Origin: a virus | Taxonomy: Duplodnaviria > Heunggongvirae > Uroviricota > Caudoviricetes | IMG/VR virus record: IMGVR_UViG_3300028789_000005 | Strand: one strand, 5' to 3' | Length of the DNA stretch: 64,000 bases | In this document: positions 32,885-51,659 of the stretch, in pieces | Numbering within the stretch: the stretch's first letter is position 1 | Layout: each line of letters begins with the position of its first letter | The notes under the pieces: generated by a model | Databases searched by the model: none | The model's input: the letters and a program-made list of their open reading frames with translations, nothing else | Told to the model about the DNA's origin: nothing | Position numbers and translations under genes: made by a program

Positions 32885-33703
32885 ATGCCAGTAGTAAAGA
32901 AGACAGCAGCCAAAGGTAAGAAGACAACGTCCACGGCGATAATTCCTTGGACGGAAAAATTTGCGAAGTACGCCAAAGAAACAAAGGAACAGACCAAGAA
33001 CATCGGAGTCGGCGGCGTCAGTATTAAGTTCGGCCGTGGACGCATCTCTATCGGCGACGTCGAAGTCAAGGGCGGCAAGCTGGAGTGCGTCATTGTCGGC
33101 AGCTGCGCGCTCAATCGCTGGAACGAGCAGCCGTTTGATGCGTCCAATCCGCTGCCGCCGGATTGCTACGCGTTCTCTGTCATCTCGGACGACCCAGAGA
33201 TGGCTCCTCACCCGTCGGCACCTGACAAGCAAGCTGTGAAGTGCGCCGATTGTGAAAAGAACCAGTTCGGTACGGCGCGCGTTGGCAAGGGCAAGGCATG
33301 CGGCAATACTATTCGTCTCGGCCTGCTGACCGGCAATGACGCCACCGAGGACGCTGACAGCGTCGCCGCTGCGGAGATGGCCAATGCCGGTGTCAGCCCT
33401 ACCAACCTGAACCATTACAAGAAGTACACCGACCTGTTGGAAGAGGAGTATGGTCGTCCGCCGTGGGCCGTGGTGACGGAGATTGCCAGTTACGATGATC
33501 CGAAGACACAGATTCGTCTGGAGTTCAAGATGGTGTCTCTGATTGACGACGACGACGTTCTCCAGGCTCTTGAGAAGCGTGTGCTCAAGGTGCAGGAGCA
33601 ACTTCAGAAGCCGTTCTCCGTGGCCGATAAGACCGCGAAGAAGGCTCCGGCTGCGTCGAAGTCCAATTCCAAGTTCGCCGGCAAGAAGACTACACGGCGG
33701 TAG
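32885..33703 (+). CDS. hypothetical protein (basic termini, Cys-containing core; possibly DNA-binding)
   Basis: ORF track; CAAGGAGAACTGA upstream. No confident family assignment. Confidence 0.5.
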   Translation: MPVVKKTAAKGKKTTSTAIIPWTEKFAKYAKETKEQTKNIGVGGVSIKFGRGRISIGDVEVKGGKLECVIVGSCALNRWNEQPFDASNPLPPDCYAFSVISDDPEMAPHPSAPDKQAVKCADCEKNQFGTARVGKGKACGNTIRLGLLTGNDATEDADSVAAAEMANAGVSPTNLNHYKKYTDLLEEEYGRPPWAVVTEIASYDDPKTQIRLEFKMVSLIDDDDVLQALEKRVLKVQEQLQKPFSVADKTAKKAPAASKSNSKFAGKKTTRR

Positions 33704-33768
33704 AATTCTAAGTCGTACTTGGTCGGTAGCCCTCACTGCTGGCCAAGTACGGCGAAGAAAGGAGTACT

Positions 33769-33873
33769 ATGAAACTGATCTTACTGATCCCGCGCATCTT
33801 CCTCATCATTTGTTTGATTCCTTTTGCGTTGGTTTTTGGCCCTGCACTATTTACGAAGCGGAGATTGTTTTGA
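33769..33873 (+). CDS. 34-aa hydrophobic peptide (MKLILLIPRIFLIICLIPFALVFGPALFTKRRLF)
   Basis: ATG preceded by AAAGGAGTACT; its stop overlaps a TTG at 33870 (TTGA). Below the ORF-track cutoff. Confidence 0.25.
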   Translation: MKLILLIPRIFLIICLIPFALVFGPALFTKRRLF

Positions 33874-34301
33874 TTCTATCGCGGCAAGATCTTATGAAGT
33901 ACGTAGAGCGGGGTGCGCTACGGTTCGAGCCAGCATTGGCTGACGATCAGTTTCAGCAAAACGGCATTGACATGATTGTGAGTCAGGTGGAGAGCGACTT
34001 GTTGGCCGCAGGTGGATTCACGTTAGGTCGTACGCGCGAGATTATAACCATGCCTGACGACCTTATGGCGTTCGTGCAAATACGGTCCACTTGGGCGCGT
34101 ATGGGCTTCATCATGCCACCGACTGTGATAGACGCTGGCTTCCAGGGCAGTATCACCCTGGAGATAGCCAAGTTCGGCGCGCCGGGTTACGTGCCTGTTG
34201 GACAGCGATTCGCCCACGTCATCTTCGCGAAGCTTACCAGCGCCACCGAGCCTTATCGCGGCAAGTACCAGGGCCAAGTGGCCATTACGGGGGCGCTGTA
34301 G
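33870..34301 (+). CDS. dCTP deaminase/dUTPase-superfamily protein (Dcd-like)
   Basis: ORF track 33543..34301 trimmed to TTG 33870, with an alternative ATG at 33894. FIMPPTVIDAGFQGSITLEIAKFG matches the IDPG(F/W)xGxIxLE core of dCTP deaminase/dUTPase trimers. Confidence 0.55.
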   Translation: MILSRQDLMKYVERGALRFEPALADDQFQQNGIDMIVSQVESDLLAAGGFTLGRTREIITMPDDLMAFVQIRSTWARMGFIMPPTVIDAGFQGSITLEIAKFGAPGYVPVGQRFAHVIFAKLTSATEPYRGKYQGQVAITGAL

Positions 34302-36281
34302 ATGCCACGTGCGCCGCAGGTGATTCTCGCAGATTTTGAAACGAAGGGTATTCAGTCGCGGCCAAAGTACCCACCGAAGCCGGGTTCGCTCGCTCTTAAG
34401 TGGCCCGATCAGTCAGATTACAAACTCATGGCATGGGGTCATGGGGATGGAACGCGTGCGTTCGACAACAATTGCACAGAGAAGGAAGCGCGCGGCGAGC
34501 TCAAGAAGGCACAGGAAAGCAAGTATCCAGTGCTTTGGCAGAACGAGAAATTCGATCTGGACGTCGCCGAAATACATTGGGAACTACCAATCCCGGATTG
34601 GCGGAAGCGTCACGATACTATGTATCTTCTCTTCCTCGAGAACCCTCATGCTCCGTCTCTAGCGTTGAAGGAATCGGCCCAGCGCATACTAGGGATTGCG
34701 CCTGAGGAGCAGGACAAGCTGAAGGAGTGGATCCTAGCCAACATCGAGGCGGCGCGTAAGAAGCCCAGCACATGGGGTGCGTATATCTGCGAAGCGCCTT
34801 ATCGAATTGTCAAGCCCTACCACAAAGGCGATCTCACGCGCATGGGTCGGTTGTTCAATAAGATCTACCCGTATATCGTCGAGTCCGGAATGCTGGAAGC
34901 GTATCAACGTGAATTGAAGCTCATGCCAATACTGCTGGAGAACGAGCGGGTGGGGATGCGCGTGGACATGAATGGCCTAGAGCGTGACTTGCCGGCGATG
35001 ATAGCTGGCGTAGAGAAGACCGATGTCTGGCTGCGCAAGAAGCTGGGTATTGAGAACATCGACAGTGATCGGCAGCTTGGCGAGGCGCTTTACAATAAAG
35101 GAATCGTAAGCGACTTTAAGAAGACAGCCAAGGGCCATCTGTCGGTGAGTAAGAAGACACTTACGTTGAATAAGTTCAAAGACCCGAAGGTGTATCAAGC
35201 CCTGCAGTATCGCGGTCAGATGAGTACGTCCATCTCGATGTTTATCAAGCCTTGGTTGGAACTTGGTACAGCCGGCAAGGGTACCATTCACCCTAACTGG
35301 TCGCAGGTGCGCAGTCCGAAGGGTAACAACGATACAGGAGGAGCGCGCAGCGGTCGCATCATTTGCTCAAAGCCTAACTTCTTAAATATTCCGAAGAAAT
35401 GGAAGCGCGCAGCTTCTGCCGGTTACGTCCATCCAGCATTCTTGAAGGTTCCAGAATTGCCGTACGTACGTAGTTACTGCTTACCGGATAAGGGTCAGCG
35501 GTGGGGCAAAAGGGATTTCGATCAACAAGAATTGAGATTGTTCGGCCACTTTGAAGAAGGACCCGTTATGGCAGGTTTCTTATCTGCCCAAATAGATTTG
35601 CCATGCTCTAAGTGCGGCGCACCTGTAGGTAAACAATGCGTTGGTGGCAAATTTCACGCAGAACGCAAATACGACATCCATGAACTGGTGCGTGCAGAAG
35701 TAGAACGGCGTTTGATTGAAGCGTGTTTACGCGAAGGATTCGACCGTGACACTGCCAAGAGTTGCGTGTTCGGTCGTCTGTATGGCCAGGGTATAACCGG
35801 CCTGATGCAGCTTCTACAGCTACTAGATGAAGAGAAGCCTATTGCGCAGATCATCCAGGCTTCTATCAACGCGGCTGTGCCATCGATCAAGGAACTGGAC
35901 AATCGTTTGAAGGCGCTCTCGGATGAAGGCTTGCCGATTCGCACGTTTGGGTCACGTCTGTACTATTGTGAAGAGCCGAAGTACAGTCCTCTGTATGGCA
36001 GAGACATGACATTTTCATATAAACTTCTCAACTACCTCATGCAAGGTAGCGGAGCTGATGTAACGAAAGAAACATTGATACGTTATAACGAAGCCAAGAA
36101 GAATAGCAGATTCGTCGTCACTGTGTATGACGAAGTTAATTTCAGTGCACCTGCTAAAGCAATGAAAGAAGAACAGAAAATAATGCAAGATTGTATGCGT
36201 AGTATCGCCACCGACGTTCCCATGTTGTCGGAAGGCGAATCTGGTGTTAATTGGGGGACTTTGACAAAATGGCAGGATTAA
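34302..36281 (+). CDS. DNA polymerase I-family (family A) polymerase with 3'-5' exonuclease domain
   Basis: ORF track. Exo region VILADFETKG...YPVLWQNEKFDLDV. Polymerase motif A DFDQQELRLFGH (DxxxxELR), motif B RDTAKSCVFGRLYGQG (RxxxKxxxFGxxYG) and motif C VYDEVNF (HDE-like). Confidence 0.8.
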   Translation: MPRAPQVILADFETKGIQSRPKYPPKPGSLALKWPDQSDYKLMAWGHGDGTRAFDNNCTEKEARGELKKAQESKYPVLWQNEKFDLDVAEIHWELPIPDWRKRHDTMYLLFLENPHAPSLALKESAQRILGIAPEEQDKLKEWILANIEAARKKPSTWGAYICEAPYRIVKPYHKGDLTRMGRLFNKIYPYIVESGMLEAYQRELKLMPILLENERVGMRVDMNGLERDLPAMIAGVEKTDVWLRKKLGIENIDSDRQLGEALYNKGIVSDFKKTAKGHLSVSKKTLTLNKFKDPKVYQALQYRGQMSTSISMFIKPWLELGTAGKGTIHPNWSQVRSPKGNNDTGGARSGRIICSKPNFLNIPKKWKRAASAGYVHPAFLKVPELPYVRSYCLPDKGQRWGKRDFDQQELRLFGHFEEGPVMAGFLSAQIDLPCSKCGAPVGKQCVGGKFHAERKYDIHELVRAEVERRLIEACLREGFDRDTAKSCVFGRLYGQGITGLMQLLQLLDEEKPIAQIIQASINAAVPSIKELDNRLKALSDEGLPIRTFGSRLYYCEEPKYSPLYGRDMTFSYKLLNYLMQGSGADVTKETLIRYNEAKKNSRFVVTVYDEVNFSAPAKAMKEEQKIMQDCMRSIATDVPMLSEGESGVNWGTLTKWQD

Positions 36282-46588: not shown

Positions 46589-47512
46589 TTGCCACGTAAG
46601 AGGAGAACGATCCTGAAAAACCTAACACTCATCATCCCCACGCACGGTCGTGTTAACAAGCAGATAACGCTCCAGGCGCTGCCGACTGCGCTCCAGGCCG
46701 AGGTCATCCTCGTGGCTTCGTTGCCTGACGAAGCCAAGGCGCTGAAGAAGCTGTACCCGGCTAACCAAGTGCTTACAGCCAAGGGCACTACATCCATCGC
46801 TACGAAGCGTCACTGGATTATGAAGAACGTAGCCGGCAAGTTTCTATTTATGATGGACGACGACCTGGCGTTCTTCGAGCGCTGCCCGGCTAAGTGGCGC
46901 GTGTGGGAGGAGCATCGCAAGGCGTACGCCGTAGCTCCGGACGCACCGGCTGGAACCTCGCTGATGATGCGTCGCTATCCTAAGGACAAGGTCCTCTTGA
47001 AGCTATTCCAGGAGATGGATTCCTACGCTGGTAAAGAGCACGACCTCGGTATGATCGGCATCGCGCATCGGCGTCACTCTGACAAGAAGAAAGCGGCGTG
47101 GGAGAAGAACGCAAGGATGATGTATGCTTTCGGTGTCAACCGAGAGCTCTATCTCAAAGAGAAGATTCGCTTCGACGCCATAGGTCTGCGCGAGGACTTC
47201 CACGTGGTGTTGTCCATGTTGCGTAAAGGCCATGAGTGCCACAACTACGTCGAGCTACTCAACAACGAGTACGGCACATTCGGCGCGGCGGGAGGGTGCA
47301 GCGGCGAGCGCAGTATGGAGTACAGCGACGCCCAGTGCTTCGAGTTGGCCAAGCTACACCCCGGCTTCGTGAAGGTGGTGGACCGCGCGTACACCACGAC
47401 GGCTGTGCGTAAGGAGGTCGTGGTAGCCTGGAAGAAGGCTTACCTCTCCTCTCTGGCTCAGCCCAAGGTTCCAAGCGTACGGAAGGCAGCAAAGAAAGCG
47501 GTGACGGCATGA
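46589..47512 (+). CDS. GT-A fold (GT2-like) glycosyltransferase
   Basis: ORF track; TTG start with no clear RBS, so the start is uncertain. LTLIIPTHGR resembles the GT2 N-terminal IIPT(Y/H)N. FLFMMDDDLAFF gives a DxD/DDD motif about 90 aa downstream. No TM segments. Confidence 0.5.
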   Translation: MPRKRRTILKNLTLIIPTHGRVNKQITLQALPTALQAEVILVASLPDEAKALKKLYPANQVLTAKGTTSIATKRHWIMKNVAGKFLFMMDDDLAFFERCPAKWRVWEEHRKAYAVAPDAPAGTSLMMRRYPKDKVLLKLFQEMDSYAGKEHDLGMIGIAHRRHSDKKKAAWEKNARMMYAFGVNRELYLKEKIRFDAIGLREDFHVVLSMLRKGHECHNYVELLNNEYGTFGAAGGCSGERSMEYSDAQCFELAKLHPGFVKVVDRAYTTTAVRKEVVVAWKKAYLSSLAQPKVPSVRKAAKKAVTA

Positions 47513-47676
47513 AGTGCGAAAATTGCAAGAAGAAGTGTGCGAATCGGTTCTGTAACCTTGGCTGCTTCAACCGGTGGGTGCGGCGTGGTAATCGCAAACT
47601 GGTGGAGGACGCGCACAAGAGCGGCACGGAGGATTACCGCGTCGTCGTACGGAAGATGATGGGAGGCACGGCGTGA
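47509..47676 (+). CDS. 55-aa Cys-rich mini-protein (MKCENCKKKCANRFCNLGCFNRW...)
   Basis: ATGA overlap with the GT gene and GTGA overlap with the next gene. Below the ORF-track cutoff. Confidence 0.35.
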   Translation: MKCENCKKKCANRFCNLGCFNRWVRRGNRKLVEDAHKSGTEDYRVVVRKMMGGTA

Positions 47677-48410
47677 TCATTCACCACAAGATTCAGCGCA
47701 ACAGCGGAGCAGCCCTAGAGCCGTGTATCTATAAGAGTGGCCATGGTGTGCCGACGCAAGGCGCTAAGATGCGCGCCTATCCGGACGTATTTGTGCCGGT
47801 GCTAGGTATAACGACTGGCGGCTACGTCATGCCGGTAATGGGCGAACCATCGCCGGTACTGGACCTGCCGTTGGCGCTGGCCCGGTTGGCTGCTTTATGG
47901 GACCTGCCGGTGGCGCATGTCTACGATTATGAGGGCCGCCGTCGCCACCACGTAGTCCAAGTAGAGCCGTTCACTCGCACAGAAGGCTTTCCGCCTATTA
48001 TCCGGTCGGCGCTGACGACGTGGTACGAACGAATTGGTAGTACGCAAAGCAAAGGAGCACAGGTCGTACATGGTGATCCCACCCTGGAGAACTACGTACG
48101 CGACGGTTATTGGCTAGACCCTAGTACGCGTCCATTGCCACAAGAGGCCGAGCTTGACGGCGGCAAGCTGCTGCAGTCGTACTTCCACTACGGTCGCCCT
48201 TGCCTGGAGTCGGAACGTTACATGATACGTAAGTTCTTGGTCGAGCAAAAATTGAACCTGGACCTCTGTATCTACTACATGCTGACGCACATCATTCGGC
48301 TGTATGGTGTGCAGCCGCAGGCGCGTGTATGGGCCATTGACGTCGTATCGGGCCTGCGTAATTTGGCGGAAGAACTTCGCACGGAAATGAGAGTGGATGC
48401 ATGCAAGTAG
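47673..48410 (+). CDS. APH/choline-kinase-like phosphotransferase (possible anomeric sugar kinase)
   Basis: ORF track; GTG start. VHGDPTLENYVRDGYWLDPS resembles the HGDxxxxN...D catalytic loop of the aminoglycoside/choline/sugar kinase fold. Confidence 0.45.
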   Translation: MIIHHKIQRNSGAALEPCIYKSGHGVPTQGAKMRAYPDVFVPVLGITTGGYVMPVMGEPSPVLDLPLALARLAALWDLPVAHVYDYEGRRRHHVVQVEPFTRTEGFPPIIRSALTTWYERIGSTQSKGAQVVHGDPTLENYVRDGYWLDPSTRPLPQEAELDGGKLLQSYFHYGRPCLESERYMIRKFLVEQKLNLDLCIYYMLTHIIRLYGVQPQARVWAIDVVSGLRNLAEELRTEMRVDACK

Positions 48411-49120
48411 TTATTCTGGCGGCAGGACGCGGTGAACGATTTGTCAGTAACGGGGTAATGACGCCTAAACCGCTGCTCCCAGCGCGCGGTCGCACGATGA
48501 TACAGCATGCGCTGGTCCAGGCGTCTGAAATCATCAAGACGCCTGTCGTTGTGTGCTTGGTGGATTTGTACAGTGAGCTTCACAAGCAAACGCCGAAGAA
48601 CATGCATCCGATCCGCGTGCCCATTCGGTTCGTGCAGAAGGGTGCGGCCATGTCTTTGTTGGCGGCGTCAGGTGTGATTCGCGATACCGATCCGGTGCTG
48701 GTCATGGACTGTGACACCATCTTCAAGAGTGGTGTGCTTGCTAAGTTCTCTGAGTTTAGTGAGGCTTGCTTCAAGTCTGGCGTGCAGTCTTCTATGCTGT
48801 GCTTCCGTCCTAAGGATGACAGCGAGCGCTACAGTTTCGTTATCATGAAGGATCACTTAGTGACGCAGGTGGTGGAGAAGCAGCGCATAAGCGGTATTGC
48901 TTCTTGCGGCGTTCATGCATTCCAGTCGTGGGAGCTTGCCAAGCGCGCCATCTACGAGATGGTGATTCTCAGTACGATGACTAACGGTGAGTACTATCTG
49001 GCACCGTGCCACAACAATTTGCAGTTGACCACGGCCATGGTGATCGCAGCCGATGAATTCAACCACGTAGGCACACCGGCTGAACTGGAGGCGTATGAGC
49101 AAGCAGTTCCCAAGGCTTGA
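48401..49120 (+). CDS. sugar-1-phosphate nucleotidyltransferase (NTP_transferase family)
   Basis: ORF track. The N-terminal VVILAAGRGERF matches the (L)AGGxGTRL nucleotide-binding signature of sugar nucleotidyltransferases; about 240 aa, like MurU/RmlA-type enzymes. Confidence 0.6.
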   Translation: MQVVILAAGRGERFVSNGVMTPKPLLPARGRTMIQHALVQASEIIKTPVVVCLVDLYSELHKQTPKNMHPIRVPIRFVQKGAAMSLLAASGVIRDTDPVLVMDCDTIFKSGVLAKFSEFSEACFKSGVQSSMLCFRPKDDSERYSFVIMKDHLVTQVVEKQRISGIASCGVHAFQSWELAKRAIYEMVILSTMTNGEYYLAPCHNNLQLTTAMVIAADEFNHVGTPAELEAYEQAVPKA

Positions 49121-49967
49121 AGAGTTCGTGTACTTCGTGAACGAGCGTTGGTCCATACATCAGAAGCGATTGGCTGGGAAGCCTGCTCCGTGGACGAAGG
49201 ATCCTATCCTGTTGGAATACCGCTTTACCAACGTACGTCGCGAAGACGACAGGGTCACTAAGTGTATACACGAAAACTGGTTACAGCCGCACGCGGAGGA
49301 CTACGACACGGTAGTCTTCGCAATGGCGCTGGCACGGTTGGTGAACTTGCCGGCGAGCCTGGAAGCGCTCGGTTATCCATCAAAATGGAATCCGAAGCGG
49401 TTTGTGAAGCTGATGGAGGCGCGCAAGAAGGACGGCATGGCGACGTTCACAGGGGCATACATGATAAACGCCGTCGGTGCTACCAAAGGACAGTCCAAGG
49501 CGTCGTACTTGGCCGACCAGGTGCTTGGGCCGTTGTGGAACAGCCGTAAGCTGCTAGGTAACTTGGTGCGTACCGGGTGTGAGCTTAGTACGTTGCAAGA
49601 AGCGCTCATGTTACATCACGGCTTCGGAGGTGGGTTCATGAGTGCGCAGGTCGTGGCGGATATTAAGCACCTGCCTTCTATGAAGAAGGCTGAAGACTGG
49701 ATGACGTTCGCAATGTCAGGGCCAGGAAGTCGTAGAGGGTTAAACTGGCTCGTGGGAAGAGAACCAACTGCGCGCTGGAACGAAGAGGAATGGCATGCTA
49801 CGCTGCTGGATTTGATGAAGGTAGCTCAGCCAAAGTTGAAATGCCCAGTGTTGGATGCGCAGAATCTACAGAACTGTCTGTGTGAATTCAGCAAATACTG
49901 CAAGGTGAAGTACAACGGCGGCAGAGCGAAGCAGAAGTTCCGCGCCAGCGGCGAAGCTTATAATTAA
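49095..49967 (+). CDS. conserved hypothetical protein embedded in the sugar/nucleotide module
   Basis: ORF track; overlaps the nucleotidyltransferase gene end by 26 nt. No family recognised. Confidence 0.5.
   Translation: MSKQFPRLEEFVYFVNERWSIHQKRLAGKPAPWTKDPILLEYRFTNVRREDDRVTKCIHENWLQPHAEDYDTVVFAMALARLVNLPASLEALGYPSKWNPKRFVKLMEARKKDGMATFTGAYMINAVGATKGQSKASYLADQVLGPLWNSRKLLGNLVRTGCELSTLQEALMLHHGFGGGFMSAQVVADIKHLPSMKKAEDWMTFAMSGPGSRRGLNWLVGREPTARWNEEEWHATLLDLMKVAQPKLKCPVLDAQNLQNCLCEFSKYCKVKYNGGRAKQKFRASGEAYN
49959..49964 (+). promoter_or_regulatory. promoter-like -10 box (agCTTATAATt) 29 nt upstream of ATG 49993
   Basis: gYTATAAT motif family; AAAGGAAG RBS before the ATG. Confidence 0.35.
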
Positions 49968-49992
49968 CCCATAGCAGCGAAAGGAAGTGAAG

Positions 49993-51084
49993 ATGTACAG
50001 TTACAAAGCTAGAGACGTAAATGAGGCGCTTTCACTTGGACTACAGCATTTGTTACACAGTGGAATCAAAGAGGACTCCAGAGTAGGTCCAGTGCTAGTA
50101 GCGCCAGGGCCGGTGTGTATCGAGTATACCGACCCAAGGCAGCGAGTGCTGTATTCACCAACGCGCGATGCGAACCACGTATTCCATGTGATGGAGGCGT
50201 TGTGGTTTTTCTCGGGGAGCAACGAACTGGAGTTTCCGGTTTTCTTTAATGCCTCATACTCGCAGTTTTCAGATGATGGCAAGACTATGTGGGACTCTTA
50301 CGGATGGCGCTGGCGAGAATTCTTCGGCTATGACCAGCTCGATGCCATAGTGGAGGAGCTCAAGTCGAATCCGGGAAGCAGGCGCTGCGTATTGGCGATG
50401 TGGAACGCTGATATTGCGCCAAGCGCCCCGCAATGGGAGGCGAAAAGTGGCGTACAGTACAGCGATGATCTTGGCGTTGCGTGCAACGGTGGTAAAGCCG
50501 TTCCGTGCAACACGCACGCTTACTTCGCCATACGAGCCGGCAAGCTGAACATGACCGTCATGAACCGCAGCAACGACAGTATGTGGGGCGCATTCGGCGC
50601 GAACGCGGTCCACTTCAGCTTCCTGTTGGAGTACATGGCGATGCGTATCGGTGTGCCGATGGGCAGTTACTATCAGTTCACGAACAATCTGCATACGTAT
50701 ACCGACAAGTTCAGTATTGACAAGCTGAACGCCATTGAATACGAGTGCGTTACGCTCGATCAGTTGGAACCTCTTGGACCCTCTATCACAGAAGGATTCG
50801 ACGACGACCTGAAGCTGTTCATGCCGTGGGCGCTGAAGGTGATACGTGCCACCCCACCGCCGGCAACGTTCCCGTCAGACGTATTACCAGAAGCTACGCA
50901 GCTTGCAGCGAACGTCCCCGCCTGCAAGACGCCATTCTTCCATGCGGTAGCCATTCCGATGTTCCTGTTCTGGGTGTTCCGAAAGTGGAAGGATGAATAC
51001 AGCAGCAACACTTGCCTCGATGGCATTGACGCGCCGGACTGGAAGCGCGCGTGCTACGAGTGGAAAGAACGGAGGCGGAAGTGA
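49993..51084 (+). CDS. thymidylate synthase (ThyA)-family enzyme with extended C-terminus: thymidylate synthase or dUMP hydroxymethylase
   Basis: ORF track 49987..51084, start placed at ATG 49993 after AAAGGAAG. RRCVLAMWNADIAP, AVPCNTHAYF (catalytic Cys), NRSNDSMWGAFGANAVHFSFLLEYMA and QFTNNLHTY align with the ThyA motifs RR..L.AWN, PCH..FQF, RSxDxxLGxPFNIASYALL and GDxHxY. An Asn is retained at the PFN position that sets dUMP specificity in ThyA. The ~100-aa C-terminal extension is not found in classical ThyA. Confidence 0.65.
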   Translation: MYSYKARDVNEALSLGLQHLLHSGIKEDSRVGPVLVAPGPVCIEYTDPRQRVLYSPTRDANHVFHVMEALWFFSGSNELEFPVFFNASYSQFSDDGKTMWDSYGWRWREFFGYDQLDAIVEELKSNPGSRRCVLAMWNADIAPSAPQWEAKSGVQYSDDLGVACNGGKAVPCNTHAYFAIRAGKLNMTVMNRSNDSMWGAFGANAVHFSFLLEYMAMRIGVPMGSYYQFTNNLHTYTDKFSIDKLNAIEYECVTLDQLEPLGPSITEGFDDDLKLFMPWALKVIRATPPPATFPSDVLPEATQLAANVPACKTPFFHAVAIPMFLFWVFRKWKDEYSSNTCLDGIDAPDWKRACYEWKERRRK

Positions 51085-51659
51085 AAGAACTCCTGCAATT
51101 CATTTACGAGGGCGGTAGTGTAATTCGCTACCACGCACGTCCAGGCTTACGCACAGACACCGATGCGTCACACTCGTTCGGCGTTGCTCTTTGGTGCAGT
51201 TTACTGGCCGGCAAAGATGCCGAGGGTCGTACGCAAGCCAGCGCCATGTTGCTTATGGCAGCGCTAACGCATGATCTGGCCGAGCAAGCAGCGTCAGACA
51301 TCAGCGCTCCAGCCAAGCGCATGATGGGCCTGTCTGACCTAGTCCATGACTGGGAGCAGAAGACGCTGCGTAAGTACGACCTGGATTATGAGCAATGGTT
51401 GGATCCGGAGGAGTTGCTCATCCTTAAGCTGGCTGACTGCTTTGATGGTCTGCTGTATTGCTGCCGTGAGCTTGCCTTAGGTAACAAGAACGTCATGCTG
51501 ATCTGGAAGCGATTCTGTTCATACATCGAAACACTCACGGTAAATACGGAAGTACCCTTGGACATCGCGCTGCGCGCCTCTAACATGTACGAAGCTATAA
51601 AGGAGATCTATCGTGAAACCCGTAGTGAAGCAGGTCCGGAATTCAACGTCTTCGAGTAG
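51051..51659 (+). CDS. HD-domain 5'-deoxynucleotidase (YfbR-like)
   Basis: ORF track; start uncertain, with a GTG at about 51081 just before the ThyA-like stop. VIRYHARPGLRTDTDASHSFGVALW...AALTHDLAEQAASDISAP matches the YfbR pattern (R.......ESVAEHS...A...LLHD.PE). Confidence 0.6.
   Translation: MLRVERTEAEVKELLQFIYEGGSVIRYHARPGLRTDTDASHSFGVALWCSLLAGKDAEGRTQASAMLLMAALTHDLAEQAASDISAPAKRMMGLSDLVHDWEQKTLRKYDLDYEQWLDPEELLILKLADCFDGLLYCCRELALGNKNVMLIWKRFCSYIETLTVNTEVPLDIALRASNMYEAIKEIYRETRSEAGPEFNVFE

Follow-up and report, generated by a model that had tools for sequence, protein, structure and literature searches.

The gene at positions 49993-51084 of the analysed stretch of phage DNA (64 kb in length, hereafter the window, from an uncultured phage with a genome of ~100 kb) very probably encodes a folate-dependent dUMP 5-hydroxymethyltransferase, its product being assigned by homology and gene context. 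Enzymes of this kind are known; the peculiarity of this one is that a key acidic residue has probably shifted to a neighbouring position of the active site. The features of the gene, all on the + strand, are as follows.

49993..51084, +, ThyA-fold pyrimidine hydroxymethylase, predicted dUMP 5-hydroxymethyltransferase (363 aa plus stop)
49975..49982, +, Shine-Dalgarno-like AAAGGAAG ahead of the ATG at 49993, read directly from the sequence
49993..50715, +, ThyA-type catalytic core, aa 1-241, with key residues showing little or no variation among 79-114 relatives
50293..50295, +, Asp101 (two residues before the core Tyr, Tyr minus 2), aligned with Ser94 of T4 dCMP hydroxymethylase (dCH); proposed relocated water-activating carboxylate, from covariation and the T4 dCH alignment
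50413..50493, +, insertion of variable length before the catalytic Cys, aa 141-167 (~27 aa), from alignments; pLDDT 84-92
50497..50499, +, Ala169 (three residues before the catalytic Cys, Cys minus 3), Leu143 in E. coli ThyA and Asp145 in T4 dCH, from alignment and literature
50506..50511, +, catalytic Cys172 followed by Asn173 (Cys-His in synthases), invariant in 114 relatives and 151 representatives
50569..50604, +, RSNDSMWGAFGAN loop with Ser193 (deoxyribose), Asp195 (folate type) and Asn204 (uracil), from alignment and literature determinants
50716..51081, +, C-terminal all-helical MilA-type domain, aa 242-363, six helices

The open reading frame runs from the ATG at 49993 to the TGA at 51082-51084 and encodes 363 aa, as originally described. 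The ATG was preferred to the GTG at 49987 because the Shine-Dalgarno-like sequence lies 6 nt upstream, and homologues likewise begin with MYS. All four motifs on which the original prediction was built were recovered, namely RRCVLAMWN (aa 130-138), PCNTHAYF (171-178), RSNDSMWGAFGAN (192-204) and QFTNNLHTY (228-236), and membership of the ThyA family was borne out by matches to Pfam PF00303 (E = 5.5e-18, spanning only profile positions 47-216 of 266) and, over the full length, to PHROG 5131 (E = 3e-94). A family HMM matched this reading frame alone, with no second ThyA homologue in the 64-kb window, and the matches there to the RHRx7S motif of ThyX, a weak test, sit in non-coding frames only. 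A megablast search with a 5 kb query found no close relative among sequenced phages, the sole match being 96 bp long.

The protein has a ThyA fold with the catalytic Cys and the dUMP-binding residues in place. By alignment with E. coli ThyA and T4 dCH, the core residues are Arg30, Glu68, Tyr103, Arg130/131, Cys172, Arg192-Ser193-x-Asp195, Asn204 and His234-x-Tyr236. At ~20% identity, it shares with E. coli ThyA the fold, the nucleophile, the phosphate-binding arginines and the equivalents of Glu58, Tyr94, Asp169, Asn177, His207 and Tyr209, but differs from it at His147 (Asn), Leu143 (Ala), Pro92 (Asp) and Trp80/Trp83 (Tyr/Phe). The first of these differences, the replacement of the His of the PCH block noted in the original prediction, is indeed present as Cys172-Asn173 (codons 50506-50511). 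Cys-Asn is common to the enzymes of Vi01, SH-Ab 15599, SP82G, YuA and PaMx11 and occurs in all six reference dUMP hydroxymethylases, and among the discriminators of modification-linked ThyA homologues position 147 ranks in the top two (PMC8670742). Specificity for uracil and 2'-deoxyribose is determined by Asn at N177, Ser at S167 and Arg at R126'/R127' (PMC5175136). Using the loop determinants reported previously (PMC5175136, PMC13326640, PMC8670742), we found Asn204 (N177, uracil), Asp195 (D169, folate type) and Ser193 with Arg130/131 (deoxyribose) to be invariant in 151/151 representatives, so that the enzyme carries the residues for both uracil and 2'-deoxyribose.

The protein had been described as running about 100 residues past the normal ThyA end. 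Its excess of 99 aa over E. coli ThyA does not all lie past the end: ~27 aa fall in the insertion before the catalytic Cys (aa 141-167), which is found neither in E. coli ThyA nor in the Yuavirus enzymes, and 127 residues follow the tyrosine of H-x-Y, versus 55 in E. coli ThyA. Cys-Asn together with more than 110 residues after this tyrosine is shared with the six reference enzymes, in which 119-157 residues follow. The C-terminal segment of the synthase, its lid, is not recognisably kept and is replaced by a helical domain with conserved Leu273, Phe276, Pro322, Trp327, Lys331, Asp349-Trp350, Trp357 and Arg360-Arg361. Structure prediction and comparison returned a hydroxymethylase as the closest structural relative, the CMP 5-hydroxymethylase MilA of Streptomyces rimofaciens (PDB 5jnh, 5b6d; 22% identity), with which it shares a ThyA core followed by a C-terminal five-helix domain. 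Sequence homology of the C-terminal region to MilA was not detectable, the profile HMM alignment stopping at ~aa 239, so the likeness of this region is one of fold. The specificity residues differ, MilA having Asp186 for cytosine and Lys133'/Ala176 for ribose against Asn204, Arg130/131 and Ser193 here, and MilA has Asp at Cys minus 3. In a HMMER pairwise alignment the catalytic Cys of MilA was matched to Cys164, a non-conserved residue that was discarded; the profile alignment gives Cys172. We propose a structural rather than catalytic role for the MilA-type helical domain made up by the last 120 residues.

Among named phages, the closest full-length relatives are the Yuavirus enzymes (38% identity, 100% coverage), including YuA gp17, annotated as a putative deoxyuridylate hydroxymethyltransferase. 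Yuavirus proteins (YuA gp17/M6 type), PaMx11 gp51 and Rhodoferax phage P26218 gp16 align over their full length at 36-38% identity and share the C-terminal helical region, the DW...W..RR end, Cys-Asn and the RSND..WG..GAN loop. They differ in lacking the 27-aa insertion and in having the canonical Gly at Tyr minus 2 with Asp at Cys minus 3. The enzymes of Ackermannviridae (Vi01, SH-Ab 15599) and of Bacillus hmU phages (SPO1/SP82G type) have the same core with Cys-Asn, an extra residue, relative to ThyA, in the loop before the specificity Asn, and a stretch of 119-157 residues following H-x-Y, but they align in the core only (25-33% identity), their C-terminal regions are not alignable by sequence, and they have Asp at Cys minus 3. 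The SH-Ab 15599 dUMP hydroxymethylase has been used to reconstitute hypermodification in E. coli (PMC13458397). Identity of the query to the reference enzymes for which functional data exist (SH-Ab 15599 and SPO1/SP82 type) is only ~25-33%, and over the core only.

The published hydroxymethylase signature is Asp or Glu at Cys minus 3, and this position is Asp in all six reference dUMP hydroxymethylases, while the query has Ala169. T4 gp42 dCMP hydroxymethylase (PDB 6l18; ternary complex, PMC6400193), for which the same chemistry is proposed, with water attacking an exocyclic methylene, has a Ser94-Asp145 pair as its hydroxymethylation signature, and this pair maps exactly onto query positions 101 and 169. 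Ser94 and Asp145 are hydrogen-bonded in the crystal structure; activity is lost in D145N and S94N, while S94A retains ~25% (PMC6400193). Across 114 relatives, an acid was present at position 101 or 169 in every case (114/114), never at both and never at neither, with the pairs 101/169 being Asp/Ala (70), Gly/Asp (39), Asp/Cys (4) and Asp/Gly (1). An acid at one position but not the other was also found in 148/151 non-redundant representatives and in 262/265 sampled relatives overall. Moreover, either arrangement is found beside the same kinase and transferase genes, Asp101 in the window and Asp at Cys minus 3 in locus L010. Taken with the T4 dCH structure, this covariation suggests that Asp101 stands in for the missing acid at Cys minus 3, and thus that the acid was relocated rather than lost. 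About seven switches were estimated from a rough neighbour-joining tree, and the margins of the nearest-neighbour test were small; the covariation may therefore rest on few independent events. Asp159 was also considered as a substitute carboxylate and dropped, because its 'DL' motif is kept in all long-type enzymes whichever acid arrangement they have.

The genes around the enzyme that bear on its function, all on the + strand, are listed below.

33543..34301, +, dCTP deaminase/dUTPase-fold protein, likely supplier of deoxyuridine nucleotides (PF22769; TIGR02274, 100.2 bits, cut-off 92.8)
34302..36281, +, family A DNA polymerase, expected to incorporate 5-hmdUTP (PF00476, E = 1.5e-37)
46712..47512, +, TAGT-like DNA glycosyltransferase that may act downstream on 5-hmdU in DNA (PF20691, E = 1.1e-14; PHROG 842 'beta-glucosyl-HMC-alpha-glucosyltransferase', E = 2.6e-43)
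47673..48410, +, APH/choline-kinase-fold small-molecule kinase with invariant HGDPTLEN...WLDPS (AF2 pLDDT 91.9)
48401..49120, +, sugar-1-phosphate/phospho-alcohol nucleotidyltransferase of the GlmU N-terminal, MurU or LicC type (PF12804, PF00483)
49095..49967, +, 5-hmdU DNA kinase (5-HMUDK), directly upstream of the enzyme (PF18723, E = 1.9e-41)
51081..51659, +, HD-domain phosphohydrolase of the YfbR-like 5'-deoxynucleotidase family (domain match; preceded by GGAGG)

The enzyme is therefore linked to genes for the use of 5-hmdU (5-HMUDK) and for the nucleotide pool (HD, dCTP deaminase-fold and polymerase genes). The GTG start of the HD gene overlaps the stop of the hydroxymethylase gene (GTGA), a sign of translational coupling. 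The order kinase, enzyme, HD gene is kept in 5/5 diverged metagenomic loci whose enzymes are 46-100% identical, one of which (L008) has two small ORFs between kinase and enzyme. It is matched by gp50-gp51-gp52 of PaMx11, and in YuA the gp14 kinase is followed by two small ORFs and then gp17-gp18. The HD gene lies downstream of the enzyme in all five metagenomic loci and, directly after it, in YuA, PaMx11 and the Rhodoferax phage; 5-HMUDK is upstream in YuA and PaMx11, and a gene of this family adjoins the ThyA-like gene in PaMx11 and SH-Ab 15599. Consistently, 5-HMUDK is known to co-associate with dUMP hydroxymethyltransferase, which supplies its 5-hmdU substrate (PMC5889632, PMC8989533, PMC13458397).

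It is very improbable that the protein is a true thymidylate synthase with a decorated C-terminus that makes dTMP for phage replication. The ThyA fold, the full set of nucleophile and phosphate-binding residues and the Asn at the uracil-specifying position would suit a synthase, many public records give relatives that name, and Ala at Cys minus 3 stands where hydroxymethylases are expected to be acidic. However, the protein scored far below the cut-offs of all seven NCBIfam synthase equivalogs (among them 67.5 vs 174.6, 58.5 vs 327, 54.4 vs 327, 45 vs 325 and 42.3 vs 108) and lacks the folate-sealing C-terminal tail, His147, Leu143 and Trp80/Trp83 of synthases, including the hydrophobic, water-excluding Leu143 and Trp83 (PMC6400193). 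In addition, a kinase for 5-hmdU in DNA flanks the enzyme in every locus examined, and the nearest structural relative is a hydroxymethylase. The original prediction had raised a hydroxymethylase or a bifunctional enzyme, and it is supported in part: the active-site residues, the 5-HMUDK context and the scores below the synthase cut-offs favour the former, while the MilA-type C-terminal fold speaks against the latter. That a second catalytic domain, or a metal- or Cys-dependent one, occupies the last 120 residues is less probable still, even though this region is well folded with invariant Trp350, Trp357, Asp349 and Arg360/361: a second catalytic domain was rejected on its MilA-type helical fold, and a metal- or redox-active tail was rejected because the tail cysteines are not conserved. 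The cysteines pointed out in the tail do exist, but C311, C341 and C354 are found in only 17/114, 51/114 and 83/114 relatives, being replaced mostly by Leu, Trp, Ala or Ile.

Two other chemistries appear equally remote, and slightly more so than a bifunctional enzyme. A glycosyltransferase gene nearby would fit a flavin-dependent pyrimidine C5-hydroxylase of the RB69 gp48/9iqc type that makes 5-hydroxy-dCMP as a glycosylation acceptor, but the signature of such 5-hydroxy-dCMP synthases (RB69 gp48, DLP3 gp80, 9iqc; Asn at 169 and Asp at 177; PMC13326640) is absent, with Asp195 invariant in place of the diagnostic D169N and Asn204 invariant in place of the cytosine-specifying N177D, and the adjacent kinase works on a hydroxymethyl rather than a 5-hydroxy group. 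MilA is the best PDB match in both sequence and structure, which would agree with a hydroxymethylase specific for cytosine that uses dCMP or CMP, as T4 gp42 and MilA do; against such an enzyme, the base-specifying residue is Asn rather than Asp, the ribose-discriminating residues are Ser and Arg rather than Ala and Lys, and both the dCTP deaminase-fold gene and the 5-hmdU kinase indicate uracil chemistry. Nor does the protein resemble T4 gp42 in its Asp179 or its very short C-terminus. It has Asn204, and its H-x-Y is followed by 127 residues, where 28 follow in T4 gp42.

A mechanism for the dUMP 5-hydroxymethyltransferase that we favour can be proposed from those of its homologues thymidylate synthase and T4 dCMP hydroxymethylase. 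Cys172 would attack C6 of dUMP, C5 would attack the iminium form of 5,10-methylene-tetrahydrofolate, and elimination of tetrahydrofolate would leave an exocyclic methylene, which would be attacked by water, whereas in the synthase hydride is transferred from the folate. The products would be 5-hydroxymethyl-dUMP and tetrahydrofolate. Asn204 would select uracil, and Ser193 together with Arg130/131 from the partner subunit of the homodimer would select the 2'-deoxyribonucleotide. Because the C-terminal lid, Leu143 and Trp80/Trp83 of the synthase are missing or replaced, the active site would be open to water, and Asp101 would supply the water-activating carboxylate, the role of Asp145 in T4 dCH. 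The placing of one Asp either/or on two contacting positions yields a simple, testable prediction on water activation in pyrimidine hydroxymethylases, and a search for Asp at Cys minus 3, the published signature, would overlook the Asp101 subgroup.

The enzyme would thus take the first step towards viral DNA in which thymine gives way to a chemically decorated base. After phosphorylation, its product would enter the DNA through the family A polymerase, thymidine nucleotides may be depleted by the HD phosphohydrolase whose gene is translationally coupled to that of the enzyme, and the 5-hmdU DNA kinase and neighbouring transferases would turn 5-hmdU in DNA into a hypermodified base. Nearly all of these proteins are recorded publicly as 'thymidylate synthase'; relabelling them as dUMP hydroxymethylase means that the phage DNA is probably without normal thymine, which affects sequencing, restriction digestion, cloning and the predicted resistance to host defences.

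ADDT/aGPT-Pplase enzymes normally act after the DNA kinase. They are used in the YuA, PaMx11 and P26218 clusters, but none was found in the 64-kb window, and the downstream pathway therefore appears to differ from the established one. The cluster genes scanned gave no Pfam match to ADDT/aGPT-Pplase or TET/JBP, and no amino-acid:DNA transferase was detected among them. Instead, 5-HMUDK is combined with the APH/choline-kinase-fold kinase, the nucleotidyltransferase and the TAGT-like transferase, a combination that would point to thymine carrying a glycosyl- or phosphodiester-linked group, built from an NDP donor activated by the phage. The first of these partners has no match in Pfam, PHROGs or NCBIfam, and the best 50 Foldseek matches of its model are all of the APH or choline-kinase family; every NCBIfam match of the nucleotidyltransferase is below the equivalog cut-off. 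Among the papers searched, none mentions both 5-HMUDK and a glycosyltransferase. The kinase, nucleotidyltransferase and transferase are thus candidates for a new branch of thymidine hypermodification. That Asp101/Ala169 is a distinct solution to water activation, breaking the published signature, and that the enzyme is also the entry to an undescribed hmU-derived DNA hypermodification, is a tentative reading that we think possible but rather unlikely as a whole. Among the loci compared, the modification genes upstream of the enzyme vary, including ADDT, a PLP enzyme, radical SAM and TAGT.

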